The notes: generated by a model not told the origin, from the letters alone. Shown: positions 1 through 31,649, numbered from the stretch's first letter. The stretch: DNA of 64,000 nucleotides from Candidatus Woesebacteria bacterium (GCA_013374855.1 CP055308.1:102800-166799), one strand, 5' to 3'. A program made the numbers and translations.

Positions 1-330
1 TACAATCTGGCGGTTGCATATCGGGAAAAAGGAGAATTTGATAAAGCACTAACTGAAATGAAAAACACTCTTTCCTTTCTTGAAGAAGGTTCAGATGATA
101 GAAAGATCGTTGAGGAGGAAATTAAAAATATAGAATCCAAGAAAAAAGAAAAGGAAACAAAAAACCAGACAGAAACTAAAGAGCTGACTCCTCCAACAAA
201 ACCAGAAAGTGCATTGGAACCAAAAGTAAATCTACCTGAAGAAGCTGCACCTCCTTCCCCTGTTGCTACACCAGAGAACAAAGAATCAGAACCCACTCCA
301 ACAACCCCTTCTACTGAAGATCAACCATAA
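1..330 (+). CDS. C-terminal part of a TPR-repeat protein, 5' truncated by the window edge. It has a Pro/Thr/Glu-rich low-complexity tail.
   Basis: The frame is open from nt 1 (YNLAVAYREKGEFDKALTEM... is TPR-like). The listed ORF 58..330 is only the in-window Met-start portion. Confidence 0.45.
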   Translation, partial: YNLAVAYREKGEFDKALTEMKNTLSFLEEGSDDRKIVEEEIKNIESKKKEKETKNQTETKELTPPTKPESALEPKVNLPEEAAPPSPVATPENKESEPTPTTPSTEDQP

Positions 331-580
331 ATTGGAAGTATATTATACTAAACAATCCGAACAAAAATACGAGTTAAAATTCAAAAATAATATTAAATTT
401 TTGGCTTTTGGATTTTAATTTTAGCTATTGACTCTTAGGTCTCAAATTAACGCTCTTTTGCCCTTGTAATTTGATATTCTAAAATAACTAGCATTGTAAT
501 GTGTTCACAATCTTTATCTATAAAATCCCCCACAATTCAGACGGATAAAATCTAATTCCTATTTAGTTTTTAACTAAATC

Positions 581-1693
581 TCACTTTAGCACCGAAAGTG
601 GATTCAGGTGGGTACCCGACTTAATCACCTCAAAATGAAGATGTGTTCCGGTTGAGCGGCCAGTTGAACCCATCTTGCCAATAGCTGCACCGCGCGCAAC
701 AGTCTGCCCCACTTTAACATAAATTAAGGAAAGATGTGCATAAAGTGTTACATAACCATTACCATGATCAATCATAACGCGGTTTCCATAACCATAATTA
801 TCAGGCCAACCTGCAACAATAACTTTCCCGGCATCAGCTGCCAAAACATCAGGGGCTGATTTATTAGCAATATCAACTCCCTTATGATACCAAGCAAACC
901 GTTGAGTTATGGAACCAGATGCAGGCCAAACGAAATTGCCAGATGCAACAACAGTCCCCGCATCGGGAGTAATTTGTCTCATTCTTTCAGCAGGAGCTGT
1001 GGGTATTTCCGCAGGCATTACACCATCCGGCACAATCACAATCTGCCCAACAGCCAAAGCAAATGTCTCGTCGTTTATAAAAGTGTTATAAGGAAAATCT
1101 ACAATCGCCTGGGGCGAAGCATCATATTTTTTAGCTATAGAATAAACTGTATCCCCCTTTTGAACCTTATGTGAAACACCTGTAACAGGCAAAATTTCAA
1201 GCTTCTGCCCTACTTTTATAGTACCCTTTTTATCAAGTTTGTTCTGCCAACGGATGGTATCTTCTGAAACATTAAACTTTTGAGCAATTGAAGAAATTGT
1301 GTCCCCCGCAGCAACAGTATATTCTATTATTTTCTCACGGATTCTGTCTGAAACTATTGTTTCTGTAGCATCTTCCTCTGTTGCCGATGCCAATACAGAA
1401 GGAGCAGAAGAAACACTCCAAGGGTCAATGTTTCTACCGGGAAATTCATTTGCTACAATAGGGGCAATAAAAACACCTATCCCTGCCAAAGCTGCCATAC
1501 CTGTGTGAACAAATTTGCTTGCTAGCTTCCCCCTTCTCTTATACAAAGCAGCAGCAAAAACTTTTTTACCAGCCTCAAACTTAAAAAAAGAAAGACGCAA
1601 CCGATGGAAAAGAAAGTAAGAAAGCTCTCTAGAAAAAAGTTTAATCTCCTCCCAAAGCTCCAATACCTGTTCCAAAGAGTCTCCCATTTGCAA
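581..1693 (-). CDS. LysM-domain M23 family metallopeptidase (peptidoglycan hydrolase)
   Basis: Two LysM-like segments (YTVAAGDTISSIAQKFNVS, HKVQKGDTVYSIAKKY). The C-terminal M23 signature is GYGNRVMIDHGNGYVTLYAHL...GSTGRSTGTHLHFEV. Confidence 0.85.
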   Translation of the reverse strand: MQMGDSLEQVLELWEEIKLFSRELSYFLFHRLRLSFFKFEAGKKVFAAALYKRRGKLASKFVHTGMAALAGIGVFIAPIVANEFPGRNIDPWSVSSAPSVLASATEEDATETIVSDRIREKIIEYTVAAGDTISSIAQKFNVSEDTIRWQNKLDKKGTIKVGQKLEILPVTGVSHKVQKGDTVYSIAKKYDASPQAIVDFPYNTFINDETFALAVGQIVIVPDGVMPAEIPTAPAERMRQITPDAGTVVASGNFVWPASGSITQRFAWYHKGVDIANKSAPDVLAADAGKVIVAGWPDNYGYGNRVMIDHGNGYVTLYAHLSLIYVKVGQTVARGAAIGKMGSTGRSTGTHLHFEVIKSGTHLNPLSVLK

Positions 1694-1844
1694 GAATAAA
1701 AGTTATCATATAGAAAAGAAGAAGTCAAAGAATAATTACGAATTCTATTATTAGACATTTGCCCGTTTTTATGGAATATTAGCTTGCCAGAAGTCCAAAT
1801 GGAAAATTATCCAACCAAACTAGAAAGTTTGATGAATTACTCTA

Positions 1845-3329
1845 TTATTTGCAACTCGCATCAGCACAACAAGGATCATTGCAAATATACATTATTTGTT
1901 CTTTCCCAGTAGACTGTATCCCTTTAGAAGCGCTCCAAACATTTTGTACAAAAGGCTCGGTAATCAAATAACGAAAACCTTCCTTCTTTTGCGCATAATT
2001 TGACGCCATCTGCGCCAACCAAATTTGAAGTTCAGTTGAGCTTTTGAAGCTTAAATTGCCCCTATTTAGATTGCTTTGTTTCGAAAAAAACAACGAACCA
2101 CCAGTAGGATCAGGAACACCATTTAAAAATTGGTTATAAATTTCTTGAACTATACTCAAAGTTGCAGAAAACCGAGAACTTTGTGAAGGACATTTATCAG
2201 GATTCTGCAAACACCTATCTATCGCTTCTTGTGTAGCCTGCTCAAGAGTCATCCCAGACCAATTGCCTAAAATACTACTCAACATAGGAGCTAGAGCTTG
2301 TGTATAAGTTGAGGCAGTACCCGCAGATGCTCTATTTAAAAGCACCCACGCCATCAGAGATTGATAACTCACAGGATCCGTACCATTTGATGCCTCAGCA
2401 AAAACCGTAGCAGCAATATGAGACAGTGGAATATTTATTTGTTGTCTGGGAACTGATGAGGTACTGCCCTGAACATTTGAAGTCAGAATTATACTCCTCA
2501 AATTTGGCAAGGATTGAGATTGAGATTGAGAAGGAATTTGATTTTGATCTTTAGTTTGAGAGGTTGCCGGCATATTCAAAGACTTACTTACGGCGCCTAA
2601 TATAATATAAGGATTATTCACAAGATTATCCTCAGTAGCAAGTTCATCTGGAGACCCATCCAAGTCAGTGTCAATATAGATTTTGCCATATTTTGAAGAT
2701 AAAGCACCAGCAAAATCTAGTATTGTCAACACTGCTGTTAAAGTACCCTTTTGCTTCTTTGATATCTGATGAGTTTTCCCGGCAGAGTCATTCCAATAAC
2801 AATAATTTGCTGAACAAAAACATGAAGAAGTAGCCATTCCAAGTGCGCACGGCTCTGCGGATGGAGGTTTAGAATCGTTTGGGACAGAAGAAACTATTTG
2901 TTTCAAAACCATCTCAAGATGTTTATCCTCTGTTGAATCGTTTGCACTCCTCCCATCAGTATTGTAAGGAGGTTGTGGGTTATTCATATTTTGAACTAAA
3001 CCTTGCGTATTTACTCCAACTCCACCACCTGTGTTATACGGAGGTTGAGGTATATTAATATTCTGCAACAGCTTACTTAAATCTTTATTTTTCTCCTTCT
3101 CCCTTTCTCTTTGCCACTCCTGAGTATCTGGCAATGTAGTATGTGGGGATGTTCCACCTCCTACTCCTCCCGGGTCAATCACTGCCATTATCTTCACAAG
3201 AGTCGGATTATCCCTATTTGTTGCCAAAAGGACAGCTGATATTAATGAGGAAATAAAAAAAACGGTTATCACCACCCCTGCTGTAGTATTTATTAGAAAT
3301 CTGACTTTCCTAATTTTAGGCAGAAACAT
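1845..3329 (-). CDS. Hypothetical secreted/membrane-anchored protein with an internal NPQPPYNTxG repeat
   Basis: N-terminal TM/signal anchor, S/T/Q-rich, a duplicated motif NxNxPQPPYNT(G/D)G, and multiple Cys. No recognisable catalytic motif. Confidence 0.5.
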   Translation of the reverse strand: MFLPKIRKVRFLINTTAGVVITVFFISSLISAVLLATNRDNPTLVKIMAVIDPGGVGGGTSPHTTLPDTQEWQREREKEKNKDLSKLLQNINIPQPPYNTGGGVGVNTQGLVQNMNNPQPPYNTDGRSANDSTEDKHLEMVLKQIVSSVPNDSKPPSAEPCALGMATSSCFCSANYCYWNDSAGKTHQISKKQKGTLTAVLTILDFAGALSSKYGKIYIDTDLDGSPDELATEDNLVNNPYIILGAVSKSLNMPATSQTKDQNQIPSQSQSQSLPNLRSIILTSNVQGSTSSVPRQQINIPLSHIAATVFAEASNGTDPVSYQSLMAWVLLNRASAGTASTYTQALAPMLSSILGNWSGMTLEQATQEAIDRCLQNPDKCPSQSSRFSATLSIVQEIYNQFLNGVPDPTGGSLFFSKQSNLNRGNLSFKSSTELQIWLAQMASNYAQKKEGFRYLITEPFVQNVWSASKGIQSTGKEQIMYICNDPCCADASCK

Positions 3330-3584
3330 TATACTTTAATCTTAAACACTCGTGAAAAATTAATCAAGAGGTTCCTCATTTTAACTATCACCTGCTAATA
3401 CTGGCAGACAAGATGCAATAAAAATTGTCCCACAACCTTGGTAATTGTCTATTACCCAATAACAACTAACTTATACCCACACTTATTAAAATCCAAGCTA
3501 ACACGATATAATTAATTCGATTAATCTTGATTTGTTTGTGTCATAAATTTCAACTGGAAGTCAAGTTTTGAGTTCTTTGAGTGA

Positions 3585-4904
3585 TTATCCTTTTGTCAAT
3601 TTATTAAGAAATTCCTTGTTGTCTTCTGTTTCTTTTAATTTTTGCAAGAAAAGCTCTGTTCTCTCATCATCACTCATCAAATCAAGCATCCGCCTCATTG
3701 TCAGAATCTTTGGCATATCTTCTTTATCATACAAAAGCTCCTCTTGCCTTGTCCCAGAGCGGGTCAAATCAATTGCCGGAAAAATCCGTCGCTCAGCTAA
3801 CTTCCTGTCCAAATGAAGTTCCATATTACCTGTCCCTTTAAATTCCTCATAAATAAGATCGTCCATTCTGCTTCCTGTGTCAACAAGACAGGTGCCAATA
3901 ATTGTCAAGCTTCCACCATTTTCAATTTTTCTTGCTGCACCGAAAAACTTCTTTGCCGGGAAAAGTGCCATAGGGTCAAAACCTCCGGAAAGTGTTCTGC
4001 CAGAAGTTGGAAGCGCCAAGTTATAAGCACGAGCCATTCTGGTTATAGAATCAAGCAAAATAACAACATCCGCACCGTTCTCAACCATTCTTTTTGCTTT
4101 CTCCAAAGCAAGTTCACCCACTCGTGTTTGATCAGCAGGTGCCTCATCAAAATTGGAAGCAACAACCTCTCCTTTACCAGCAGTTACGGCCTCCATATGA
4201 CGCTTAATATCGGTAACCTCTTCGGGTCGCTCACCAATAAGAACAGCCATAAGATGGACCTTTTTAGCTTTTGATTTTGAATCCCCTTCAGGGTAATTTT
4301 TGGCAATTCCAGCAATAATATCTTTCATCAGCCAAGTCTTACCCGCTTTCGGCGGAGAAACAACTAAACCGCGCTGCCCAAAACCAATCGGGGCAATCAG
4401 ATCAATAACACGGGTAGAAAGCGGTTCTTTGCCGGTTGAAAGATTGATCCGTGTATCAGGATAAATAGCCGTCATATCATCAAGATCAACTCGCTCTGTT
4501 GGAAGCTCTTCCACTGGTTTTCCATTGACATTTTCCACCTTAAGAAGCCCCCAATAGCGTTCATTTTCCTTAGGCCGTCTTGCCTGACCACCAACCCAAT
4601 CACCAACACGCAAATTAAACCGCCTGATTTGGCTTGCTGAGATATAAATATCACGATCCGACGGGTGATACTTTGGACGAAGAAGGCCAGACCCTTCACG
4701 AGCAATATCCAAAACCCCCTCAACATATTCAGTCGGCAGATTTGCATCCGGTATAACACGTTCATCAACCGTCAAAAGAGGTTTGCCATTACCTTGAGGT
4801 TCAATTGCTACCTGCCCTTTTCCCAAGTTACCTGCCACATCAGGTTGTGGTAAAGACTGATTCTGATCCGCCATTAAAAAAGGTTCATCGTTTGTCATAA
4901 CCAA
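3585..4904 (-). CDS. rho: Transcription termination factor Rho
   Basis: Walker A GFGQRGLVVSPPKAGKT and ERPEEVTDI. Rho RNA-binding and ATPase domains are collinear, with LLDSITRMARAYN at the C-terminus. Confidence 0.9.
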   Translation of the reverse strand: MVMTNDEPFLMADQNQSLPQPDVAGNLGKGQVAIEPQGNGKPLLTVDERVIPDANLPTEYVEGVLDIAREGSGLLRPKYHPSDRDIYISASQIRRFNLRVGDWVGGQARRPKENERYWGLLKVENVNGKPVEELPTERVDLDDMTAIYPDTRINLSTGKEPLSTRVIDLIAPIGFGQRGLVVSPPKAGKTWLMKDIIAGIAKNYPEGDSKSKAKKVHLMAVLIGERPEEVTDIKRHMEAVTAGKGEVVASNFDEAPADQTRVGELALEKAKRMVENGADVVILLDSITRMARAYNLALPTSGRTLSGGFDPMALFPAKKFFGAARKIENGGSLTIIGTCLVDTGSRMDDLIYEEFKGTGNMELHLDRKLAERRIFPAIDLTRSGTRQEELLYDKEDMPKILTMRRMLDLMSDDERTELFLQKLKETEDNKEFLNKLTKG

Positions 4905-5110
4905 GGATTTAGATTAACTTAGTTTCATTTCGTCAAAAGGAAGAAACCTTAAGTTCCCGAGGGGGAAACTATTGTTAGTTTATGACAAAGGCAAAAAGTT
5001 GTCAATAGGAAAAAGAAGCAGCAGCAAATATCAGGAAACTGATATCAGGCAAACTCATACAAATTATCCCTAAAGAAAATGAAACAAAAATCATAAGTTA
5101 TTAAAAAGTT

Positions 5111-8100
5111 TTAACTTTTGAGCTTTGGTTTACCTCCCCTCATCAAAAGCAAAACTGATATACCACCAACCAAAAATCCAATCCATTGCAAAGCTTGCGG
5201 CCAGAAGAAAACAAAAACCTTAAAGCTACCCTCTCCCGATTTAGAATCACCCGCAGGAATCAACCACCCATTTGCCCAAGAGTTAACTTTCAAGTGTTTG
5301 AGTAATTTGTAGCCTCTAATTTCTAATTTGGAACTAGGTATCTCCAGCGCCACCCATCCCTTATCAAAACCCTGCGGTAGAACTAATATCTCATAACGAG
5401 CATTGTTTAACGACCGACCATCAAAACCCACCTGAACTTTATATCCCCAAGTGCCATATTTTTTAACACTCAAAACTTCAAGATTGTTTTGCTCACCTTT
5501 AAGGGAGCCTCCTTTAAAGGTAGTAAGCTGATAAAACCAGTCTATGTCAATAGGTATAAAAGTAATATCTTCTATAATGTTTTCTGACATTATTTTGCCA
5601 AATGAACGTGTTTCGATATTTAAAGTGTAACCTTCTGGAATATTCTCGTAGCTTTTTGTAAATTCGTAAACTTCTTTGCTTTCTGATGGATAAATCACAA
5701 AATAACTATCAAAATCTCCATTTTTATCTGCTTTCAAAAGCTCTTCCAAATCCATTCTTCCTGTCCGCAAGTTTTGAAGATAAACCTTCAAACTTCTCCC
5801 TGCTAGGTTTTTACCCTTTATTCTCATAAGCCAAGCACGGCTGCGGTCAAGAGTCGGATAATAAAACCAGTCACACGACACTCCTCCATCATAGGCTCCA
5901 TAAAAATTTCCCTTATCAAGACGCTTTTTAACCGCGATTCCTTTCTTTTTTAGATCACAGTTGTAACCTTCTTTGAAACCTTGCTCTTCTCCAAATTTTT
6001 CCTCTATTTTCTCAACAACAGGCAGAACTACCTTAGCCAAATAATCTTTATTTTCCACCACCAAACTTTCCCTTTCTCCATCATCTAGTATCCGAAAAGA
6101 GACACTTGCCCGCGGATCAAAATTGACAAAAGGGAAAGCCGGCGTTGACAAACCGTCATCTCCGCTTACATATTCCCCATAATTTTGATATATATAGTCA
6201 TATTTTGAATATTTTAAGTCGGAATTGATACTAAAAAAATTCCCCGGAGTCTGGACAGGGTCGGACCCTGTCCAAGAAGAAAAGTGATAAACTGTTAAAA
6301 ATCCAAACTGGGCAACTTTTTCAATACGGGAGGATTTATCAAAGAGATCCTTAATTTGCTTGAAATACAAAATTTTGCCATCACCGCCAGCGTTCACCAC
6401 CGATTCATCAAGCAAAAGATAGGAAACATTATACTTCTCAAGCACCTTCTCAAATTCACTAACAACTTCCTTATTCCACTTTTCTATACCTTCTTTTAGC
6501 TCTTCCTCCCTCTTGCAATCCTTCTTGTCTTGACAGGGTCGGACCCTGTCCAAATCAATCAGATGATATTTGTAAAGAGTGCTTGATGCTTCATTGTAAA
6601 AACTCTCGTTATAAGGACTCCAACGATCATAATCTCTTATTAAAATAGGTCTTTCTATGCCAAAACCCAAGAAACCAGATCCCTCATACTTCCATTCGTG
6701 ATATTCCCAACCCCAAAGACTATAAACAGGAAAAACTGCTATTCTTCCATCATAATTCCTCATATAATCAAAAAGCTCAAAATACTCTGATGGCAAATCT
6801 CTTCTTACAATAGAGCTAATCAACTCACCATTAAAAAATGGCCAGCAACGATACACTAAAGCAAAAAAGACTAAAGCAGATAATAAAGAATAAACCAAAA
6901 ACCTAATCCTAAAGCGACCAAATAAAGAAAACAAATAATAAAAGAAGACTCCAAAATAAAAAGAAAGAGAAAATTGGTAAAGAATAGAAAACTTAGTAAA
7001 AGGCATTCGAAAACCTTCTCTAAAAACGTCGTATCTATCAACGAGTATGCCGTATATTCTACCTAAGGGGCCGTTAATATTTTGTAAAAAAAACAAAGAT
7101 ATCAATAAAATAGAAATAAAAGACCAAAGTTCTTTTTTCTTTGCAAAAAAAGAAAAAAATATTCCAATAACACAAATAACAAACAAAAGAAAACCAAGCT
7201 CTTTTAGGTAAGGAGAATTCAAATGGGAATTCCAGGAAGCCATCAAATCGACAAAAGTATTATTCTCAAAATCAAAAGCCCGCCAATCAAAAAGAAAATT
7301 TTTCCCCAAGACAACATCCTGCCAACTTCCATAATCTTGGTTTCTCAAAAAAACTTCGGGAGAGAAAAGCTGGTTAATCTTCGAGTCAATTATTACTGAA
7401 GAAGCATTGAGTATACTATACAAATTTGGTAAAAGCCAATACGCATTGAGAGCAATCTGAAGAAATAAAACAAGAAACACTTTTTTAAAAGTAATAAAAT
7501 TTCTTGAAAGCACAAAATAAACTCCAAGAAAAGCAACAAAACAGACAAGAAAAGCCAAATACAAAGCAGAGGCATAAGCCATTGATGAAGCAAAAAAAGT
7601 AAAAATAGAAAACCAAAAAAGACTGTGCTTATCCCCACTCCTCAAAAATTTCATCAAAAACAAAAAAATCCAGGGTAAAAATCCAAATTGAACACAAAAC
7701 ATCTCAAAAGGAACGTAAAAATGTTGAAGTGTAATAAGATTTAGAAGATAAAAAAGAGAAGCAAGAAACGCAGAAAAATTGGTTGCTAATTTGTTATTCT
7801 CTTCAAAAATAAATTTAAAAGCAAAATAAAAACCCAAAGGCCCTAAGAATAAACATAAAAAAACAAAACTGTAACGCAAGAAGTTCTGGGGAAAGAAAAA
7901 TGATTCAAGCCATAAAATAAAAATACGAGGCAAATCAGCCATATGAGAATGGGTAAAAAGATCCCCCACCCCTTGGTCTTCCCTCCAAACACCAGAGAAA
8001 GCTCTCTGAAAAGCCAAACGAAAATCAAATTCAGGATGAAGTGAGTCCCAACCCAGTAAATAAGTTCCGGATTGATAATTTTTATAAGCGATAAAAAAAA

Positions 8101-8164
8101 CAGTAAGAAAAATTAAAAAAGGAAAAAGTAATCTTTCCAAGTAACGCAAAGTTTTAGAAAACAT
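5111..8164 (-). CDS. Large polytopic membrane protein (1017 aa). It has about 12-14 N-terminal TM helices, a ~450-aa soluble domain and a C-terminal TM. It is possibly a GT-C-fold glycosyltransferase.
   Basis: Hydrophobicity pattern. There is an acidic first loop (GWDSLHPEFDF...REDQGVGD). The architecture resembles the STT3/PMT/ArnT family, but no firm motif match was found. Confidence 0.55.
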   Translation of the reverse strand: MFSKTLRYLERLLFPFLIFLTVFFIAYKNYQSGTYLLGWDSLHPEFDFRLAFQRAFSGVWREDQGVGDLFTHSHMADLPRIFILWLESFFFPQNFLRYSFVFLCLFLGPLGFYFAFKFIFEENNKLATNFSAFLASLFYLLNLITLQHFYVPFEMFCVQFGFLPWIFLFLMKFLRSGDKHSLFWFSIFTFFASSMAYASALYLAFLVCFVAFLGVYFVLSRNFITFKKVFLVLFLQIALNAYWLLPNLYSILNASSVIIDSKINQLFSPEVFLRNQDYGSWQDVVLGKNFLFDWRAFDFENNTFVDLMASWNSHLNSPYLKELGFLLFVICVIGIFFSFFAKKKELWSFISILLISLFFLQNINGPLGRIYGILVDRYDVFREGFRMPFTKFSILYQFSLSFYFGVFFYYLFSLFGRFRIRFLVYSLLSALVFFALVYRCWPFFNGELISSIVRRDLPSEYFELFDYMRNYDGRIAVFPVYSLWGWEYHEWKYEGSGFLGFGIERPILIRDYDRWSPYNESFYNEASSTLYKYHLIDLDRVRPCQDKKDCKREEELKEGIEKWNKEVVSEFEKVLEKYNVSYLLLDESVVNAGGDGKILYFKQIKDLFDKSSRIEKVAQFGFLTVYHFSSWTGSDPVQTPGNFFSINSDLKYSKYDYIYQNYGEYVSGDDGLSTPAFPFVNFDPRASVSFRILDDGERESLVVENKDYLAKVVLPVVEKIEEKFGEEQGFKEGYNCDLKKKGIAVKKRLDKGNFYGAYDGGVSCDWFYYPTLDRSRAWLMRIKGKNLAGRSLKVYLQNLRTGRMDLEELLKADKNGDFDSYFVIYPSESKEVYEFTKSYENIPEGYTLNIETRSFGKIMSENIIEDITFIPIDIDWFYQLTTFKGGSLKGEQNNLEVLSVKKYGTWGYKVQVGFDGRSLNNARYEILVLPQGFDKGWVALEIPSSKLEIRGYKLLKHLKVNSWANGWLIPAGDSKSGEGSFKVFVFFWPQALQWIGFLVGGISVLLLMRGGKPKLKS
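6252..6274. repeat. GC-rich palindromic element copy 1 (tggacagggtc-g-gaccctgtcca) inside the 5111..8164 CDS
   Basis: Perfect 11-bp inverted arms around a single central nucleotide. It shares the 22-bp core GACAGGGTCGGACCCTGTCCAA with copy 2. Confidence 0.75.
6531..6553. repeat. GC-rich palindromic element copy 2 (gacagggtc-g-gaccctgtc) inside the 5111..8164 CDS
   Basis: Identical 22-bp core, 279 bp from copy 1. It is translated in a different reading frame from copy 1 (DRVRPCQD versus GSDPVQT), so the repeat is at the DNA level. Confidence 0.75.
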
Positions 8165-8280
8165 ACTTATTATTTTATTCTAATACCAGACAAAAATAAA
8201 AAGGCCCTGCACAAAATAAATTTCAACATCCAAAGGATGAAGAAAAGTGCAGGGCCAGTATCGAGGCAAAAACTCTTATT

Positions 8281-9189
8281 CTATCGACTCACGGTCGTGT
8301 GCATTGTTGCAAGAATGCGATCTCCTGCGTGCACAATAACCATTACATCGACAGTTTCACAGGCATTCGGTTGAATACCACAGTTTGCACCAGCATTAAT
8401 TGAACTCCCCGCGTTTAACACGTCGCCCGTTATTGAGTTCCGTAGCGTTGGATAGTTCAGCATATTAGCCGCTGCATGACTGGTTAATCCCCAGACTGCC
8501 CATTCAAGAGCTTCACCATTCCAGTAGCGTCCCATAACGGTAAAGCCGTTATTAACGCTCTGATCGCGCCAAGTAAAGCTTTCGTTCATTACATTGAACA
8601 AAATGATCAGACAACCTTTACGGTCTTGACCTTCAACATTTTGGCACGAATAGCTAAACTTAGGCGAGGTAAACTTGTAATCACCGCTTATAAGCCGATA
8701 GTGCCAGGCTGGTATAACCCAGTCACAGCGTTGATCCTGCTCACAGAACGGCGAATCATCCTGTCCGTACTCTACTCCGTCAGCGACATTAAAATCAGCC
8801 ACTTTCGGATTGGCAACGTTTGGAAACGTCGGCCAGAGTTCCGGCGCTGGCGCTCGGACCTTCGGCAGCCAAGCTGCAACGATTGGATCGTCTTTTAGAT
8901 CAATTTCGTTAATTTCCCAACCATTGTTAGAAAACTGTGCAGCTAAAGTTGCCGGCGGTACTCCATCAGTTAGATCCACGGGGCTTGATGCTTCTTGCGT
9001 ATTTTGTGCAAGATTTGCTACTTGCGTAGCCAATCCCGACACTGTTTGAGCAAGTTCAGCTTGCTGAGTAGCTAGTAATGCCAAGACTTCAGATTCTACA
9101 TTCGGCTCAACTGGTTCCCGCCCCTTTACCGCATCGCACGCGGTAAGGAGGAGAATCGAAACAACAACCAAAACAAGTATTTTCTTCAT
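8281..9189 (-). CDS. Hypothetical lipoprotein (lipobox LLLTAC), Cys-containing, in a GC-elevated gene
   Basis: AGGAGG lies 7 nt upstream of the ATG at 9189. Signal peptide is MKKILVLVVVSILLLTAC. About 48-50% GC against about 35% in the flanks. Confidence 0.7.
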   Translation of the reverse strand: MKKILVLVVVSILLLTACDAVKGREPVEPNVESEVLALLATQQAELAQTVSGLATQVANLAQNTQEASSPVDLTDGVPPATLAAQFSNNGWEINEIDLKDDPIVAAWLPKVRAPAPELWPTFPNVANPKVADFNVADGVEYGQDDSPFCEQDQRCDWVIPAWHYRLISGDYKFTSPKFSYSCQNVEGQDRKGCLIILFNVMNESFTWRDQSVNNGFTVMGRYWNGEALEWAVWGLTSHAAANMLNYPTLRNSITGDVLNAGSSINAGANCGIQPNACETVDVMVIVHAGDRILATMHTTVSR

Positions 9190-9607
9190 GGCTTCCTCCT
9201 CTGTGAATATAGACTTTTTCTCTGGCAAGAGAACTCACCTAACGGTGAGGGTCTGAAAACTAAAAACAAAAATAAAAACAAATTAAACCTTTAATTTTCA
9301 GAATCCCACCGTCAGATAAGAAATCTGCCAGAGGTTTTTTGCCTCGATTTGTTAAGGTGCTAAAATCACCTTTTTAAAGAAGGGTTTTGTAGTCTTGAAA
9401 AACTTCTCGCAAAAGAAAAGCCAAACCACAAACACCCTTTCTGCTCTTGAAAGCAGAAGCATATTTTCGGTTCTCTCTTCCTCTTTCTTTTAAATTTAAA
9501 AAAACAGGAGAGCTCACACCCCCATACAAAAGCTAACCAAAAACACTTATTCTGCTTTCAAAAGCCAGTCTCTGTCTTTAAAGGAGAACCCCCTAAAGGC
9601 AAAGTTA

Positions 9608-9859
9608 TTAAAGAGCAAATTTTTTAGATAAACGATAGAATAAAAACCCTGTGCCAAGAAGTCCTGCAGCAACAAGAAGAGGATAATCTTCAATTCCAGT
9701 TTCAACCGGTTTGTGTTCAGGTGCTTTTACACCACAAACAACTCCGCCACCGTAAACGGTTGTGCAAACAGTTTCCTGAGCAAAAGCAGTGTTTACCCTG
9801 CCCAAGACAACTGTCAAAAATGCAAATATAACTATAAGTCTTTTCATAATGATAAGCAA
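9608..9859 (-). CDS. Small secreted protein with a C-terminal sorting-signal-like architecture (candidate sortase substrate)
   Basis: N-terminal signal peptide. The C-terminus reads ...EHKPVETG-IEDYP-LLVAAGLLGTGFLFY-RLSKK: a pentapeptide-like motif, a hydrophobic segment and a basic tail. It sits directly next to the sortase gene. Confidence 0.6.
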   Translation of the reverse strand: MLIIMKRLIVIFAFLTVVLGRVNTAFAQETVCTTVYGGGVVCGVKAPEHKPVETGIEDYPLLVAAGLLGTGFLFYRLSKKFAL

Positions 9860-9901
9860 TTATACTCTATAGTTTTTTATTTGTCAAGCGCTATAGGATA
9901 A

Positions 9902-10618
9902 TTATACCTCCAACAACCTTGCATACTTAAAAATCCTAATAGGAGAAGTTAAAGATTCGCAAGTATAAAGAATCAAATCAGCTGAATAATCATCAATCTC
10001 TTCACCTTTTCCTTCCGCATAAACTTCGTAAACATATTTCCTCTGCCGCCAAACAACCTCAACCGTGTCACCAACTTTAACTTTCGGCAGATTATAAAAA
10101 GAATTCTTCAAACGATACGGAACACTCCACTTAAGATAACCATAACGATGAGCTGCCAAAATAACAGGCAATTGGCGATCATAAGGAGTTCCAAAATCAG
10201 GCACTCGCCAAACACCAACTTTCAAAGCTTCCTCATAACTTTCAACCGGTTTCTCATTAATCTTAGTATTAATACCCACAGAAGGAATAATTATCATGTT
10301 CTCAAGCGGCAAAGAAGGATCAAACCTAGGTTGATATTTTTCCACAACAGGCATTGGGGGCAAAACAACAGATTCTGTCTTATGAGCTTTTCTGATAAGC
10401 AAAGACGGTAGTTTTGCACCAGAGCCAATAAAATATACAACTGAAGGAAAATACAATACCAAAAGAACCAAAAGGGAAGCTAGAATTGCAAAAACAGCAA
10501 GCAAGCGCAAAATTTTAGCCATGGAAAAACGAGCCTTGGCAGGAATTAAACTTACAACCTGAACAGGCTCTCCAACAAATTGGCTTTGATAATAGGTATT
10601 CAAATAAAGGTTTTCCAT
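9902..10618 (-). CDS. Sortase family transpeptidase
   Basis: N-terminal TM, a conserved His (VILAAHRYG), the catalytic Cys in LILYTCESL (TLxTC-like) and a downstream Arg. Order and spacing are as in sortases. Confidence 0.8.
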   Translation of the reverse strand: MENLYLNTYYQSQFVGEPVQVVSLIPAKARFSMAKILRLLAVFAILASLLVLLVLYFPSVVYFIGSGAKLPSLLIRKAHKTESVVLPPMPVVEKYQPRFDPSLPLENMIIIPSVGINTKINEKPVESYEEALKVGVWRVPDFGTPYDRQLPVILAAHRYGYLKWSVPYRLKNSFYNLPKVKVGDTVEVVWRQRKYVYEVYAEGKGEEIDDYSADLILYTCESLTSPIRIFKYARLLEV

Positions 10619-10777
10619 AAATAAAGCAAAAGGGCGCTTGTTTTGCCCTTAAGGAGCGGGTAGATCGCCTGCCCTACAATCCACCCGCCCCGCAAAGACA
10701 AACTCAAACGCCCTCTAATAAAACTATAAGACTTTTATATCTAAGGTCTAAAACAGCCGTATAACGGCAATTGGCTC

Positions 10778-11005
10778 TTGACAGACTTTTGTTTTGGTAA
10801 TAAATAATTTAAAGGGAAAAGTTTTAAGCCTGTCCTTCTCCGCTTCAGGCGGAGAAAGCCTAAAAAAGAGCATTCGGCGAAAAAGTTATCTTTTTCGCAA
10901 GCTTTGCTTAGTCGTGGTTATTTTATCCGATGTGTTCGGAACCCTACCAGCGATAAGCGAGGCTTGCCCATCCCGGGCCGGGTGCTCTTTTTTTGTTTCC
11001 AAAGT
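10778..11005 (+). ncRNA. Candidate small structured RNA, identity unknown. It has a putative sigma70-like promoter (TTGACA at 10778-10783) and ends at an intrinsic terminator (~10975-11005).
   Basis: GC-richer segment in an AT-rich intergenic region. Stems ccgcttcaggcggag and cggcgaaaaagttatctttttcgc. A cccg-ggc-cggg stem plus U-run lies ~300 bp before radA. The overlapping 75-aa ORF is low complexity. Confidence 0.3.
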
Positions 11006-11336
11006 ACCGCAATCATTCTAGCATCAAGAACCTTAAAAGTCAAACCCTATAATAAAAAATAAGTTAAAAATCACCACTCCTATAGTTTTTTTAATTAAAA
11101 AAATGCCATAAAATAGGCAAAATAAAAAATAATAAAAAATTGTGGATAAGTTGTTAACAAGATTGGTAGGTCAAAAAACAGATTTTAGAGCATTGAGTTA
11201 AGAATTATCAATCAAAAGCTGACAATTTCTAATTTTTAATTCTCGGCTACCCACTCTTTGATTCTATAATCTATATCCATAATCCTGACAATATTTTTTG
11301 CTTTTTAAGACACTTCTTTTTATACTTGAGAAAAAT

Positions 11337-12659
11337 ATGGCACAAGAAAAAACACAATATGTCTGCCAGCAATGTGGTTTCGCTCAACCCAAATGGTCCG
11401 GCAAATGTCCCAATTGCAACGCCTGGAATTCGATGGTTGAAACAATAACCCAAAGAGAGAATCAAAAAGATACAAGGAAAACAACGCCCGCTAATATACT
11501 CCCACTTGAGAAAATAAAACCTCAAGATTCAGAAAGAGTAAATACAGGAAGCATCGAGCTAAACCGCGTCCTTGGAGGTGGAATAGTCAAAGGACAAACA
11601 ATTCTTCTAGCAGGAGAGCCGGGTATTGGTAAATCAACACTTCTTCTACAACTTGCAAACAAAATCTCCACAGGTAGAAGTAAGGTAATATACGCCTCAG
11701 GTGAAGAATCAGCCTACCAAATTGCAGTCCGCGCCAAAAGACTTTCTGTCAAAAATCCAAATATTTCAATAGTTGAATCAACAGATATAGACAGCATTAT
11801 AGAATCGTTTGTCCAAAACCAAAAAAACCTTGCCCTTGTTATAGTTGATTCAATTCAAACTGTATCTACAAACGATCTTTCCGGACTTGCTGGATCAGTT
11901 GGCCAAGTAAGAGAATCTGCTTTTAGACTAGTCTCCTTTGCCAAAAAAAGCGGTGTTCCTGTTTTTATAATTGGCCATGTTACCAAAGAAGGAACAGTTG
12001 CCGGCCCTGCTGTTCTTGCGCATATTGTTGATACAATTTTATGGTTTGAAGGCGAAAAGACGATGCAATTAAGGCTAATTAGAGCTGTAAAAAACCGCTT
12101 CGGTCCAACAGACGAAGTGGGAATTTTTGAGATGACAGAAAAAGGCCTAACCTCGCTTACTAATGCGGACCGCATTTTCCTCTCAGAAGGAGCAAAAAAT
12201 GTATCAGGAAGTGCCGTTTCTTCCACACTACAGGGAACAAGGCCTGTTTTGGTTGAAATTCAAAGCTTGACAACCCCTACAAAATCGGCTTTCCCTAAAA
12301 GAATTGCACAAGGAATTGATTCAAAAAGACTGGAGCTCATTATTGCCATTCTTATCAAAAGATGTAACATCCCACTTTATGATCAGGACATTTTTGTCAA
12401 CGTAACAGGAGGAATAAAAATAGAAGAGAATGCCTGTGATTTGGCAGTTGCCCTTTCTATTGCCTCCTCTTACTACAACAAGTCACTTCCTCAAAAATCA
12501 ATTGCTGTTGGAGAGCTCGGTTTGCTTGGGGAAATAAGAGAGGTTATTGGACTTGAAAAACGCCTAAAAGAGGCAAAAAGATTAGGTTTTGAAAATCAAA
12601 TATGTTCAAAAGAATTTTCTTCCTTACAAGAGGTAATAAAGAAAACATTGAGAACATAA
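11337..12659 (+). CDS. radA: DNA repair protein RadA/Sms
   Basis: N-terminal zinc finger CQQCGFAQPKWSGKCPNC, Walker A GEPGIGKSTLLLQ, the KNRFG motif (AVKNRFGPTDE) and a Lon-like C-terminal domain. The start was moved to the ATG at 11337 (MAQEK). Confidence 0.9.
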   Translation: MAQEKTQYVCQQCGFAQPKWSGKCPNCNAWNSMVETITQRENQKDTRKTTPANILPLEKIKPQDSERVNTGSIELNRVLGGGIVKGQTILLAGEPGIGKSTLLLQLANKISTGRSKVIYASGEESAYQIAVRAKRLSVKNPNISIVESTDIDSIIESFVQNQKNLALVIVDSIQTVSTNDLSGLAGSVGQVRESAFRLVSFAKKSGVPVFIIGHVTKEGTVAGPAVLAHIVDTILWFEGEKTMQLRLIRAVKNRFGPTDEVGIFEMTEKGLTSLTNADRIFLSEGAKNVSGSAVSSTLQGTRPVLVEIQSLTTPTKSAFPKRIAQGIDSKRLELIIAILIKRCNIPLYDQDIFVNVTGGIKIEENACDLAVALSIASSYYNKSLPQKSIAVGELGLLGEIREVIGLEKRLKEAKRLGFENQICSKEFSSLQEVIKKTLRT

Positions 12660-12768
12660 AAGAGTATCTAGAATTTGCCTAACAACCTAAAATTAAAATA
12701 ACTAATTACCGAACTATGATCCCCCTCTCTACTCTCTTCCTTCTTCAAGAACTAGTATCCAACAAAAA

Positions 12769-13077
12769 TTAGCTTGAAGTCCTCCTCACTAAAGAAAGTA
12801 TTCTTGGACACAAGTCTGTAACGAACAATACCCCATTTCCAAGCTTAACATTTCTGGGAACAATAAAGATACCATCGTACCCAAGATTTTTCTGCAAAAA
12901 CAAAGAAAATAAAGACAAAGCGGAAGTTAATTCTTTAACATCAAAAGGAAGGTTCCTCCTAAATTTAGGAGGAATTTCTTCCAAATTATGTCCTTCTACA
13001 AAATCAGACACAGTAGCCGGAGTGCCACAGCAAGAACAAACCAATAATTTTGAAACAGGAACAATTCTCACAGGCAA
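12769..13077 (-). CDS. Hypothetical protein; the start is uncertain
   Basis: The frame is open up to ~13230 with no in-frame ATG. The track start at 13077 is a TTG. A CxxC-like motif (LVCSCCG) is present. No family was recognised. Confidence 0.35.
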   Translation of the reverse strand: MPVRIVPVSKLLVCSCCGTPATVSDFVEGHNLEEIPPKFRRNLPFDVKELTSALSLFSLFLQKNLGYDGIFIVPRNVKLGNGVLFVTDLCPRILSLVRRTSS

Positions 13078-13381
13078 ATTTATTTCTTTTGCAGATAATT
13101 TAATCTGCCAATCCTCCTCTTTTGCTAAAAAAGAAGCTTCATTTGTAATATCAGCATAACAATGAGCAACTCGTACTTTTTCTTCCAGTGGTAAATTCCT
13201 CCACCTACCGTTCTTATAAACCTTAACTACATTTTTTTATCCAATTCGTAAACAAACGAATCATTTCCTGCTGCAAACCATCTGTCTGATATATCCCCAC
13301 AACAGAAGGCAAAAGAATCTGTAATTTCAGTTTCTGCAACCCTATTTGAGAAAAGCCTTTCCACTCTCCAAAAGGCAGAGT

Positions 13382-14485
13382 TTACTTGTACCCAACTGGC
13401 TTTGAGGTCAAAACAAGCCCCAAACTTATCCTCTTTTCCGGAATATTAATCTCATCAATATAAACATTTACCCTATCTCCCACCTTAAGATTTGTAGCAG
13501 GCGGAATTTTGGTAATATGCAAAAGGCCTTCAATCCCAGGCTCCAAAACAATAAAGGCACCAAAATCAGAAATTTTTACTATTTCTCCTTCTAGTTTCAT
13601 CTCAGGAACATATTTCTTGGCTGCTTCTTCCCAAGGATCTTTCTGCGCCTGTTTTATTGAGAGAGCAAATTTATCCTCTTTAACCTCAATCACTTTTACC
13701 TTAACCTTATCCCCCTCCTTTACAACATCCTCAATTTTTTTGAATTTCTCCCAAGAAATCTCAGAAACCCTAACAAGACCCTCAACTTCAATCTCTTTTT
13801 TGCCTACAGAAACAGGAATTCTGACAAAGACGCCAAAATCATATATCCCAGAAACCACCCCATTATAAATTTCCCCTTCATTTAGATTTTTAATTGCCTT
13901 TTTCTTGGCTTCCATTTCTTCCTTCTCATAAATTGCTCTCTCAGACAATATAATTCTATTTGTGTCCTTATCTATATCTATAATTTTCAGAATAAGCTTT
14001 TTCCCAGAAAGTGAATTGATATTTGAGTCATTTTTCTCTGTAAGATGAGATTTGGGAACAAATCCAGTCAACCCAAAAACCAAAACCAAAACACCTGAAG
14101 AAGAAACACTTTTAACCAAGGCTGTTATTTCCTCTTGATTCTCAAAGGCTTTTTCTATCTTTTTCCAAATAAAATCTTTAGCAGTATCACGAAGAGAAAT
14201 AATAGTATAACCATCAGGGGTTTCAGGAATTAGAACTTTTCCTTCAACCTCATCTCCCACTTCAAGGTGTCTGACAAAATCTTTTGCTTCAATAAAGGCT
14301 TTTTCAGCAACAAGACCCAAAGACTTGCCACCTATATCAAGAACAAGAGAATTGGAGTTTTTCTCTACTACTTTACCTTTAACAACCTGCCCTTTTTTTA
14401 AAGGCTGCAACCTGCCTCCCAAAGAGGCAAGAACATCCTCCATTGTTAGATTTTTTTTTGCTTCCTTTTTACTTTTTTCTGTCAA
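13382..14485 (-). CDS. rpsA: 30S ribosomal protein S1 (multiple S1 domains)
   Basis: Repeated S1 OB-fold segments (GQVVKGKVV...; GEIYNGVVSGIYDFGVFV; GEIVKISDFGAFI). Confidence 0.8.
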   Translation of the reverse strand: MTEKSKKEAKKNLTMEDVLASLGGRLQPLKKGQVVKGKVVEKNSNSLVLDIGGKSLGLVAEKAFIEAKDFVRHLEVGDEVEGKVLIPETPDGYTIISLRDTAKDFIWKKIEKAFENQEEITALVKSVSSSGVLVLVFGLTGFVPKSHLTEKNDSNINSLSGKKLILKIIDIDKDTNRIILSERAIYEKEEMEAKKKAIKNLNEGEIYNGVVSGIYDFGVFVRIPVSVGKKEIEVEGLVRVSEISWEKFKKIEDVVKEGDKVKVKVIEVKEDKFALSIKQAQKDPWEEAAKKYVPEMKLEGEIVKISDFGAFIVLEPGIEGLLHITKIPPATNLKVGDRVNVYIDEINIPEKRISLGLVLTSKPVGYK

Positions 14486-14521
14486 TTTAAAAACCTCCTT
14501 TTTCCTATTTTGATCTTAAGT

Positions 14522-14648
14522 CTTTCGGCCTTGGCCTATTTTCGCGGTCTGTTGCCAGACAACTATCGTCGGCGCTTAGGCGTTTCACTTCTGAATTCGA
14601 AATGGGATCAGGTGGTTCCGCCTAGCTCTTAAAGACCGAAAGACTTAA
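14522..14648 (-). rRNA. rrf: 5S ribosomal RNA
   Basis: The reverse complement contains CCACCTGATCCCATTTCGAATTCAGAAGTGAAACGCCTAAGCGCCGA, which is the 5S loop B/C consensus. The terminal helix tctttcgg/ccgaaaga closes it. Confidence 0.8.
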
Positions 14649-14813
14649 AACCAAAATTTGCCAAACGGCAAAGCGAAAGAGAAAAAAGGGAAAACCATTT
14701 TAAGGTCTTCGACCAATTCGCACTGGGTAAGCTTAACTCCTTACGGAGCTTCCACCTCCAGCCGAATAACCTCGTATTCTGCGAGGGGTCTTGTGACGAA
14801 TCCTAATCTTGGG

Positions 14814-14849
<36 letters not shown>

Positions 14850-14988
14850 ACAAGGAATGTGGCTACCCGGCATTGCGGCTGACGCCACAACCGGCACACC
14901 AGGGATTCCTCCCTCCTGGTCCTCTCGTACTGAGGAGAGCTCCCCTCAAGATTCAACGCTCCCACCGGATAGAGTCCGAACTGTCTCG

Positions 14989-15023
<35 letters not shown>

Positions 15024-15036
15024 GGGCGAACAGACC

Positions 15037-15067
<31 letters not shown>

Positions 15068-15485
15068 CGGTGAGCCGACATCGAGGTAGCGAACCGCACC
15101 GTCGATATGGACTCTCGGGTGCGACTACTCTGTTATCCCCGGGGTAGCTTTTATCCGTTAAGCTCCGTGCCACCCACATAGCAATCGGAGGATCACTAAG
15201 GCCTGCTTTCGCACCTGCTCGGCCCGTCGGCCTCGCAGTCAAGCCAGCTTATGCCTTTACACTTAAAGCGCGGTTTCCATTCGCGCCAAGCTGACCTTTG
15301 CGCCCCTGCGTTACACTTTAGCAGGGTACCGCCCCAGTAAAACTGCCCATCTAGCACTTTCCCCCAACCTGTTTGCAAGGCTGTCAGGTAAGACTTGAAA
15401 TGTTCCAAAGAGAGGTATTACACTGGTGCCTTAAAGGCTCCCTCCTATTCTCGACAGTTGAAACACCCAAATCAATGCCAAACTG

Positions 15486-15516
<31 letters not shown>

Positions 15517-15584
15517 GTGGGAGTAGGCCGCGTCTTCACAGCCATCGCAATTTCGCCGAGTGAAGGCTTAAGACAGTTGTCAGC

Positions 15585-15625
<41 letters not shown>

Positions 15626-15648
15626 GGCTTCGCTACCGTAGAACAGTT

Positions 15649-17065: not shown

Positions 17066-17108
<43 letters not shown>

Positions 17109-17730: not shown

Positions 17731-17769
<39 letters not shown>

Positions 17770-24440: not shown

Positions 24441-25935
<1,495 letters not shown>

Positions 25936-29756: not shown

Positions 29757-31649
29757 TTAGCCAGCTCCACCCCCACCCCCACCTCCACCGCCTCCACCAC
29801 CACCTGAAAATCCACCTGAAGAACCAACACCACGCGCTCCACTTGCAGACAAAGACAAAGACGATAAAGCCGATCCCAACCCAGAAAAAGAGGATTGAAA
29901 AACAGAAATAGAACTTCCTGGCATTCCAGAAAAACCAACAAATAATGGCGATTTCTCAAACTCTTGAGAATATTTAATAGGAAGTTGAGATAGCGCCTTA
30001 ACAGAAACTCCAAGAACAGAGCCGTAAACCAAATATTTCTCCCAAAGAACGACTGAATCTATTGGGTAATTCTTGGTAACTGAATACTCTTTTAAAAAAC
30101 GTCTAAAGGCAAGCCAGCCGGCAAATTCCATATTCCCCTTCTCTGTTCTTTTGTCCATCACAAAAAGCAGGACAAAAAGTGAAAGAAAAAACAAAAACAA
30201 AAAAGGAATCATCGCAAAATACAATCCCAATCCCACACTTCCAAACAAAACAATAGGGAAAAACCAGAAGCTAAGAAAACTAAGAAAGAAAAAAACTGCC
30301 AATTCTATTCCCAATCTTTTTTTAAGATCAGAAGCTTTCTTTTCCAAATATCCAAGATCTACTAAATCCTCACCTGCTTTTCTTATATCCTGCCAAAAAG
30401 AATAGGCTCTAGAAGGTGAATTTCTCCCTATGTTTTTTATCTCATCAAAACTAATTTTCTCCTTTTCAGAAAACAAAAGAGCAATAAGTTTTTTCTCATA
30501 TTTATTCATACTTTTACTTCCATCAATTAACACTAGATAATACTTATCAGTAAAACCCCCCAGTAGTTTTTTTGTTTTCTCCTTACCTATCGATAATATT
30601 CCTCTTCTGACCAAATCAATAATAGTTGAGGTTATAGCCTTACCATTCACTTTCTTTTCAACTAAAGCTTGAACATAAATAGGATGCAAATCACTCGGAG
30701 GTTCGTGAAGTTTGCCAGCGAGATTAACTTCAGGAACTTTTGGATCTTTTCCATACCTATACCAGGCCAAAAACCAATAAACCATTCGCCAGATTATCAA
30801 AACCAATATAAACAAGATCAGAAAAACAGGAAACCAGTTTTTTGTTTTTGTCTGAAAAGAAAATTTTTGCTCTTCTTTAAGTATATATTCTAATGTCTTG
30901 TCTGAACTCTGCGCAAAAACAGCTCCTTCAAGTTTTGGAAAAAGAACTCTCACTTCAAAAAAAGTTTCTGCCGGCAAATTCTCAGCTGAAAAATTAATTT
31001 CCCTATTTGAAACTATATTTATTTTTCCATTTAAAGGACCATGACCAAAAGCCCAAATAGAATCACTTGAGGCCTCGTGAGGCAAATAAACTTTAGCCTC
31101 CACTTTTTCTACCCCCTTTTCCCACTGGTCACCCACTAGTTGCCAATAAAACTCAGAAATATCTTTTTGATTGATGATTGCATTTTTTATTTTGTATCTT
31201 AAAGTAAAAGTTTTTTCTCTATATGAAGCTGTATAAAACCATTTGACATAAAATTTGTCTGCAGTAATATCTATCGTGTAGGTAGAAGGGGTAGAAAGGT
31301 TATTCTCAACAAAAACACCATTCTCATCAGAAATAGAAAAATCTTCTACTTGGTAGTTAGCACATCCCAAACATTTGGCAGATAAATTTATCCACTGATC
31401 TGCCCAAGAAAAAGACCCATCAAAATAATAAGTTCTTGATTCCTGTATTATTGCCGATCCGTCTTTTTGAAGATGTACTTCAATTGATAATTTTGGAATT
31501 GAATAGTCTTTAGCAAAAGTTGAGAAAGGAAAAGCAAAACAGAAAGAAAAGATCAAAAACAAAAGCAAAACCCCTTTTTTAAACATTAAAACAATCTTAT
31601 CACAAAAACAAATCCCCATGACAAGGTCTGTCCTTGTCTTCAGACCCAA
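29757..31649 (-). CDS. DUF2207-like membrane protein with a C-terminal poly-glycine tail
   Basis: Signal peptide, large extracytoplasmic domain, TM helices, and a C-terminus ...SGARGVGSSGGFSGGGGGGGGGGGGGAG. This architecture is typical of DUF2207. Confidence 0.65.
   Translation of the reverse strand: MGLKTRTDLVMGICFCDKIVLMFKKGVLLLFLIFSFCFAFPFSTFAKDYSIPKLSIEVHLQKDGSAIIQESRTYYFDGSFSWADQWINLSAKCLGCANYQVEDFSISDENGVFVENNLSTPSTYTIDITADKFYVKWFYTASYREKTFTLRYKIKNAIINQKDISEFYWQLVGDQWEKGVEKVEAKVYLPHEASSDSIWAFGHGPLNGKINIVSNREINFSAENLPAETFFEVRVLFPKLEGAVFAQSSDKTLEYILKEEQKFSFQTKTKNWFPVFLILFILVLIIWRMVYWFLAWYRYGKDPKVPEVNLAGKLHEPPSDLHPIYVQALVEKKVNGKAITSTIIDLVRRGILSIGKEKTKKLLGGFTDKYYLVLIDGSKSMNKYEKKLIALLFSEKEKISFDEIKNIGRNSPSRAYSFWQDIRKAGEDLVDLGYLEKKASDLKKRLGIELAVFFFLSFLSFWFFPIVLFGSVGLGLYFAMIPFLFLFFLSLFVLLFVMDKRTEKGNMEFAGWLAFRRFLKEYSVTKNYPIDSVVLWEKYLVYGSVLGVSVKALSQLPIKYSQEFEKSPLFVGFSGMPGSSISVFQSSFSGLGSALSSLSLSASGARGVGSSGGFSGGGGGGGGGGGGGAG

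Follow-up and report, generated by a model that had tools for sequence, protein, structure and literature searches.

Short palindromes in a membrane glycosyltransferase gene of Candidatus Woesebacteria as probable copies of a Patescibacteria REP/RAYT repeat

We analyzed a stretch of 64,000 nucleotides from Candidatus Woesebacteria bacterium (GCA_013374855.1, CP055308.1:102800-166799; hereafter the window), in which a gene for a large polytopic membrane protein (P0001) carries two copies of a GC-rich palindrome (Table 1). An earlier note, made from the sequence alone, had drawn attention to the repeat and offered several explanations for it, from a protein-binding or uptake-type site to a miniature insert tolerated by the protein. 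Here we establish the repeat family to which the palindromes belong, its association with a transposase gene, the location of the encoded peptides in loops of the protein model and the conservation of the palindromes in orthologous genes. The two copies are very likely repetitive extragenic palindromic (REP) elements of a system that pairs such repeats with a tyrosine transposase associated with REPs (RAYT) in Patescibacteria.

The 22-mer GACAGGGTCGGACCCTGTCCAA matched the + strand of the window exactly at 6254-6275 and 6532-6553, against 0 matches expected from 100 shuffles, and the stretch common to both copies extended to 27 nt with one mismatch (6249-6275 versus 6527-6553). Its G+C content is 14/22 (64%), compared with 34% in the surrounding stretch. 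Copy 1 is a perfect 11-1-11 palindrome (6252-6274) and copy 2 has a 9-1-9 palindromic core (6532-6550); the 9-nt arm GACAGGGTC had no site in the window beyond these two. Both are translated from the - strand of one open reading frame (ORF) in different frames, copy 1 as W-TGSDPV-Q (residues 631-638, with TGSDPV at 632-637) and copy 2 as L-DRVRPC-Q (residues 538-545, with DRVRPC at 539-544). As single-stranded DNA the two fold into hairpins with free energies of -7.8 to -10.9 kcal/mol and z-scores of -3.3 to -4.7, copy 1 (-10.7/-10.9 kcal/mol, z -3.6/-4.7) being more stable than copy 2 (-7.8/-8.0 kcal/mol). Exact duplication unlikely to arise by chance, arms of 9 bp (11 bp in copy 1) around a single central base, GC richness in an AT-rich gene and translation in two frames had all been claimed in the earlier note, and all were reproduced. 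To these copies we add a third, variant one, with a 7-bp stem, a 5-nt loop and a hairpin energy of -6.6/-6.8 kcal/mol. We call palindromes of the form GACAGGGTCNGACCCTGTC type 1 and those of the form GACAAGGACNGACCTTGTC type 2, the variant being of type 2. It lies at the 5' end of an ORF on the - strand (29757-31649), which either coincides with the element or adjoins it, the element then being upstream. About 13 consecutive glycines close the same ORF (29757-29820, SGGFSGGGGGGGGGGGGGAG).

Table 1. Positions of the host gene and palindromic elements in the window, and of the palindromes found inside RAYT genes of other contigs (locus names precede the coordinates).
Feature	Position	Strand	Sequence or remark
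Host gene, polytopic membrane protein, 1017 aa (P0001)	5111..8164	-	both palindromes inside
Probable REP copy 1 (protein site B)	6252..6275		TGGACAGGGTCGGACCCTGTCCA
Probable REP copy 2 (protein site A)	6531..6553		T-GACAGGGTCGGACCCTGTC-CAA
Third REP-like element, variant type 2	31620..31638		GACAAGGTCTGTCCTTGTC, reverse complement of GACAAGGAC-N-GACCTTGTC
REP copy inside RAYT gene	L107:10011-10029		
REP copy inside RAYT gene	L062:2141-2159		
REP copy inside RAYT gene	L041:528-546		
REP copy inside RAYT gene	L109:6474-6492		

A protein search with P0001 returned 494 homologs, the named ones all from Patescibacteria (Woesebacteria-type) and some with PF10131/PF20176. The structure model (mean predicted local distance difference test, pLDDT, 75) has a GT-C glycosyltransferase fold resembling AftD and oligosaccharyltransferases (OST); among folds in the Protein Data Bank (PDB), it best matches AftD, an arabinofuranosyltransferase of mycobacteria (6W98, E 1e-12), with OST/PglB next. 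Both palindrome-encoded peptides map in this model to the extracytoplasmic domain. Site A (residues 539-545) is coil bounded by helices 517-531 and 547-577 and opens a clade-specific insertion of about 33 aa; site B (632-637) is likewise coil, with strands 623-628 and 642-645 of the soluble domain on either side. According to the model, the two palindromes thus encode peptides in surface loops of a membrane glycosyltransferase.

Three orthologs from different metagenomes (L103, L104 and L105; 58-60% identity) carry palindromes at the same codon positions at both sites. At site B, the core is identical at 19/19 positions save the centre base in L104 and L105 and has one mismatch in L103. The centre base switches between C and G among the orthologs. 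At site A, the palindrome is perfect in L103 and reads GACAAGGACGGACCTTGTC in L104 and GACAATGACGGACATTGTC in L105, with both arms changed together in the latter two. The four genes share 65-71% of their nucleotides, and their third codon positions are about 51% identical pairwise and 25% identical in all four; the 5 third-codon positions of site B outside the centre are nevertheless the same in 4/4 genes. The presence of palindromes at the same codons therefore points to old, vertically inherited copies conserved at the nucleotide level, which, to judge from these alignments, would have come down from an ancestor shared by at least four species. A more divergent ortholog (L106, 52%) has neither palindrome, and P0006, also a more distant ortholog than the three, shows in the protein alignment a gap of 7 aa exactly at site A. 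The comparison supports an origin by insertion at site A, not at site B. Gap-free alignment to orthologs, combined with an element unique to the two sites, was to count in the earlier note as a sign of coincidence or ancient internal duplication; the closest orthologs do align without gaps, because the same palindrome sits at the same codons, yet P0006 has its gap at site A. The earlier note's suggestion of a miniature palindromic insert, accommodated in frame by loop regions of the protein, is essentially right. Elsewhere in the gene, a 26-nt run (5553-5578, ATTATAGAAGATATTACTTTTATACC, encoding IIEDITFIP) is identical in 4/4 orthologous genes; this run, which no other of its kind in the gene exceeds, probably encodes a protein motif under strong constraint, with codons biased to AT.

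We scanned 596 Gb of sequence, one genome per species, for GACAGGGTCNGACCCTGTC and recovered 102 stretches with the 19-bp core GACAGGGTC-N-GACCCTGTC, compared with about 9 expected (estimated as 596e9/4^18). The element is thus far from confined to the two sites in the window; the earlier note had proposed counting it across the whole genome and related genomes. Several Patescibacteria metagenome-assembled genomes (MAGs) contained 5-16 perfect copies each (Beckwithbacteria JBDRQW01, 16; MAG070, 10; CAZOLB, 9; CAZVYS, 8; CAZBTH, 6; CAYSOR, 5; Woesebacteria MGHG01, 5), low counts by comparison with the REPs of E. coli and Pseudomonas, which number in the hundreds. Position -1 of the core is T in 90% of the copies (A in the mirror position) and the flanks are random farther out, so the repeated unit is usually the 21-bp TGACAGGGTCNGACCCTGTCA, equivalent to 7 codons. 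Roughly half of the copies in AT-rich loci (55/104) fell inside open frames of at least 150 codons, some of them at ORF ends and maybe extragenic. Within ORFs only stop-free frames were used, yielding TGSDPV (38 cases), DRV[RG]PC (13) or QGxTLS (4). The genes that host them include those for a class I aminoacyl-tRNA synthetase, PheT, RecJ, UvrC, MgsA, TsaD and an ATP-binding cassette (ABC) ATPase. Compared with solved homologs, TsaD has 7 additional residues at LTGSDPV and the ABC nucleotide-binding domain 10-12 where two elements lie. One of the two adjacent palindromes in the coding sequence of an ABC-transporter ATPase domain (L029:3000-3100 and L026:100-260) is a further variant, GAAAAGGGTCCGACCCTTTC, and in L026 one palindrome arm is also partly duplicated; the arrangement suggests nested or serial events.

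Intergenic copies often came as doublets (palindrome, 8 nt, palindrome) with solitary TGACAG/CTGTCA half-sites outside them, as at L019, L024, L046, L053, L057, L066, L068, L098 and L100. Such doublets look like REPINs (REP doublets that form hairpins), and the half-sites might serve as guide or cleavage motifs. Viral contigs had only one match to the element, and a literature search with the palindrome sequence returned primers only. Many of the MAGs bearing the core were deposited as uncultured Gammaproteobacteria or Pseudomonadales. Their genes, however, are up to 96.5% identical in amino acid sequence to those of Woesebacteria contigs (L055 versus L065, for example), and judging by this similarity the labels look wrong; the suspect MAGs among L005-L100 include CAZBTH01, CAZOLB01, CAZVYS01, CAYSOR01, CAYIWI01, CAYSID01 and others. 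We therefore dropped the idea of a cross-phylum spread of the core: we regard it as essentially restricted to Patescibacteria, plus about nine singletons in GC-rich genomes, the number expected by chance. The same 19-mer also occurs in Bacteroidota contigs (L050, L052 and L090 of the Chitinophagaceae MAG CAWFMT01, and L070) with extended flanks ACCCT...AGGGT, and these may be an independent family with the same core outside Patescibacteria.

When all ORFs of the 102 loci were clustered all against all, one recurrent protein family emerged, 209-252 aa long and present in 13 loci, whose gene usually touches a palindrome. All eight members scanned matched Pfam Y1_Tnp (PF01797, E 1e-7 to 1e-12). 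The motifs YH..NRG, MPNHxH (HUH) and RYIH.NP (with the catalytic tyrosine) are invariant in the 13 members, and MPNHFH and RYIH.NP are so in sets of 13 and 42 sequences. The top NCBIfam model was NF047646 (REP_Tyr_transpos) at 41-47 bits, compared with 20 bits for IS200. The structure model of member P0151 (pLDDT 82) had as its top Foldseek match 4ER8, the E. coli TnpA-REP with a REP hairpin (E 3.6e-6, TMt 0.68), with the ISDra2 and IS608 TnpA proteins ranking behind; a sequence search of the PDB with the family returned ISDra2 TnpA alone, as a weak match. In L062, L041, L102, L085 and L099, palindromes are found 1-30 bp away on either side of the gene; in L107 and L109 they occupy both sides at 11-23 bp, and in L054 and L040 only one, on the upstream side, is seen. 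The REP variant goes with the RAYT clade, type 1 occurring with the L062 clade and type 2 with the P0151/P0226 clade. Palindromes flanking the gene are the REPtron architecture that defines RAYTs (PMC2817692, PMC8266576). The core brackets a RAYT-type gene, and therefore we regard the palindromes as the REP-type elements of a REPtron. Most of these loci also have an extra REP copy inside the gene, directly after the catalytic tyrosine motif RYIHLNP. In canonical RAYTs the tyrosine is followed by NP(L/V)(R/K)xG (Nunvar 2010, PMC2817692); in this family NP is nearly invariant, some members have NPVK-LTG, and the next residues are REP-encoded and variable. Those of P0151 (156-162) are modeled with pLDDT below 50.

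The source genome very probably encodes P0151, a RAYT of 233 aa recovered by profile search, for P0151 and P0001 are each carried by one NCBI contig, in both cases 802,554 bp long. The P0151 locus in a Logan assembly (L107, 14.7 kb) has 8 palindromes, mostly intergenic: 2 perfect copies with the window's own flanks (tgGACAGGGTCCGACCCTGTCca), 3 copies with one mismatch, of which 2 directly follow the RAYT stop codon, and 3 copies of the variant GACAAGGACGGACCTTGTC, of which 2 directly precede the start codon and 1 is inside the gene. The 23-mer form of copy 1 is also found flanking this locus. The copies counted for the source genome are the 3 in the window and these 8. In L109, a relative whose gene neighbourhood is syntenic with that of L107 and whose RAYT is 82% identical, the variant GACAAGGACGGACCTTGTC occupies both sides of the gene and its interior. 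The type 2 variant found at 31620-31638 in the window also flanks the RAYT gene in both loci.

Several observations weigh against assigning the window's palindromes to a REP/RAYT system. The window itself contains no Y1 gene (a tblastn search with the RAYTs gave nothing significant), and the link between the RAYT and the source genome rests on the matching length of 802,554 bp and on a Logan contig of another assembly. The family's NF047646 score is below the trusted cut-off of 80 bits, and its assignment to the RAYTs draws instead on fold, motifs and gene context. The tags expected at the foot of the palindrome were not found (GTAG in 6/210 flanks, CGTC in 2/210), and both copies in the window are intragenic, away from the classical extragenic location of REPs. 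Protein alignment with distant orthologs showed no length difference at site B, nor did MgsA with a palindrome differ in length from its solved homologs, so insertion does not count as demonstrated for all of the copies. Finally, no empty-site polymorphism was found, and for this reason we only infer that the repeats are mobile.

Conservation of the palindromes at fixed codons could also mean that the intragenic copies, although derived from REPs, are now exapted and selected by the host, either as messenger RNA hairpins that affect translation, stability or co-translational folding or as duplex sites for a host DNA-binding protein. This explanation is compatible with a REP origin. The (near-)perfect retention of the palindromes in four species whose genes are otherwise so diverged, the stability of the hairpins and the joint change of both arms at site A of L104 and L105, which keeps the hairpin, all speak for it. 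The apparently compensated site A, GACAAGGACGGACCTTGTC, is however a genome-wide REP subfamily that also flanks the RAYT gene. Because it is such a second subfamily, site A of L104 is not a case of site-specific structural compensation, and we withdrew compensatory evolution as proof of an RNA structure. Moreover, dozens of unrelated genes carry the same element, as does intergenic DNA, and the element's perfect Watson-Crick symmetry without G-U pairs suits a process at the DNA level better than selection on RNA. Template switching can keep palindromes perfect without selection. On balance we consider host selection an unlikely explanation.

Still less probable is that the palindromes are the ends or solo remnants of an autonomous IS200/IS605 element, comparable to palindrome-associated transposable elements (PATEs) or miniature inverted-repeat transposable elements (MITEs). 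The protein does belong to Pfam Y1_Tnp and resembles the ISDra2 and IS608 TnpA, and hairpins bracket its gene as they do in IS200, but palindromes are far more numerous than the gene. In one MAG, the Y1 genes found (L032, L074, L086 and L102; 38%, 33%, 39% and 79% identity to one reference) are divergent paralogs, not the identical copies of an insertion sequence; L107 and L109 are syntenic in the manner of a fixed chromosomal gene, with no tnpB adjoining the Y1 gene in either neighbourhood; and both the NCBIfam scores, well above the IS200 model, and the 4ER8 fold match favor a RAYT. Very improbable is a role as a DNA uptake sequence, as the target of restriction-modification or as a site of recombination, for which one could cite a word conserved in many genomes of one lineage, tolerated in coding DNA and containing GGACC/GGTCC. 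Uptake sequences occur roughly once per kb, far above the density of about 5-16 perfect copies per genome (3 in the 64 kb of the window), and the copies cluster around a Y1 transposase gene. With 1 nt at its centre, the palindrome has no room for the 6-8-bp crossover region of tyrosine recombinase sites, and the ORF clustering of the 102 loci revealed no recurrent restriction-modification or recombinase gene. The uptake-type site of the earlier note was accordingly not borne out, the copies being few and bracketing a Y1 gene, and its restriction-modification target fared no better, with nothing tying the copies to GGACC recognition.

Other candidates were tried and rejected. For a diversity-generating retroelement, positions 1-20000 had no pair of template and variable repeats, and PF05635 genes were present in ortholog contigs only. 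The resemblance of GACAG-N9-CTGTC to Tn5 mosaic ends with a 9-bp target raised the prospect of a library or assembly artifact; the flanks are TGACAG, not AGACAG, the sites are in the middle of contigs, and MEGAHIT, SPAdes and older Banfield-lab assemblies all contain them. A promoter -35 box (TTGACA), parS, matS or a Fur-like operator did not fit elements whose placement with respect to genes is inconsistent and of which many are in the middle of ORFs. Elsewhere in the window, the ribosomal RNA (rRNA) operon is unlinked, with the 16S gene (24441-25934) 6 kb from the 23S-5S pair (14697-18276 and 14523-14640). The 23S match spans 3580 nt compared with the 2925 nt of the model, an insertion of about 650 nt that is perhaps an intron or intervening sequence.

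If the palindromes form a REP/RAYT system, analogy with characterised RAYTs suggests that the enzyme would bind the folded REP hairpin on single-stranded DNA, for example on the lagging-strand template, and then cut and rejoin beside it, as described for that family (PMC3479197, PMC8266576). The protein-binding site of the earlier note would stand in amended form, the likely binder being the RAYT acting on a folded single strand. Cleavage and rejoining would spread or maintain REP copies around the chromosome. Two of them would have arrived, or arisen, in the AftD-like GT-C glycosyltransferase gene in stop-free frames, where each would add about 7 residues to an unstructured extracytoplasmic loop and be tolerated. 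The catalytic steps and the cause of the copies staying intact are, like mobility, what we infer; candidates for the upkeep of intragenic copies are RAYT-mediated homogenisation, template switching in palindromes and selection on the hairpin. We think it rather unlikely that the intragenic REPs of Patescibacteria, far from being passive passengers, have for very long times been actively kept identical, at fixed codons, to the REP population of the genome, whether because the RAYT replaces or converts them or because the hairpin is under selection.

The system shares with known REPtrons and REPINs (PMC2817692, PMC3116915, PMC3479197, PMC8266576) a short, GC-rich, dispersed multi-copy palindrome, a bracketed Y1/HUH gene that is probably not itself multi-copy, and intergenic doublets; its perfect short palindromes recall the 'group 3' REPs. 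It differs in having no GTAG/CGTC tag, a unit of 21-23 bp with one free centre base, about half of its copies in long open frames and hosts among the Patescibacteria with genomes of about 0.8 Mb. The RAYT, too, departs from the known pattern in its length of about 230 aa, an extra C-terminal helical part, the sub-cut-off NCBIfam score and the REP copy inside its own gene. Intragenic REPs (in Opitutus, Thauera and others) and the Rickettsia palindromic elements (RPE) have been described in frame, often twice per ORF and in many replication and repair genes (Di Nocera 2013, PMC3733652). Those REPs are GTAG/CGTC-tagged and mostly dimers of 20-30 aa, compared with single 21-bp units of 7 aa here (PMC3733652). 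The likeness is in the in-frame location in known protein genes, presumably in loops or linkers, which here include UvrC, RecJ, MgsA, aminoacyl-tRNA synthetases and TsaD. With RPE the in-frame location is shared, and the 21-23-bp unit, the lineage and the RAYT association set our repeats apart; RPE-1, at roughly 100-150 bp, is much longer. The small dispersed repeats (SDR) of Nostoc are reportedly hairpin-forming, mobile-looking and, at 21-27 nt, among the smallest known; no transposase is said to have been identified for them and an RNA intermediate to have been proposed. Size and hairpin are alike in the two cases, whereas here a cognate Y1 transposase is evident. IS200/IS605 elements and PATEs have in common with the present system the enzyme superfamily and the recognition of single-stranded DNA hairpins, but move as whole multi-copy units, while here probably the hairpins alone are multi-copy. 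Intragenic REPs, a kind of selfish or domesticated DNA, are therefore already known as such; the present case stands apart by its lineage, the very short untagged unit, the high intragenic fraction and the REP inside the RAYT gene.

To our knowledge, work on REP/RAYT systems has been almost confined to Proteobacteria, and in the literature that we searched no paper tied RAYTs or REPs to Patescibacteria, also known as the candidate phyla radiation (CPR). The system would account for the odd GC-rich palindromes and the TGSDPV and DRVRPC peptides in CPR proteins, supplies natural cases of essential proteins with peptides that a repeat encodes, and flags MAGs with suspect 'Gammaproteobacteria' labels. 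The untagged unit of 21 bp or 7 codons would be a small case for studying how a Y1 enzyme recognises a perfect hairpin. Should active upkeep of the copies prove true, a reduced genome of about 0.8 Mb would be maintaining a REP/RAYT 'symbiont' with members inscribed in essential proteins as well as in the RAYT gene. More generally, REP/RAYT replicators would persist even in ultra-small, streamlined genomes.

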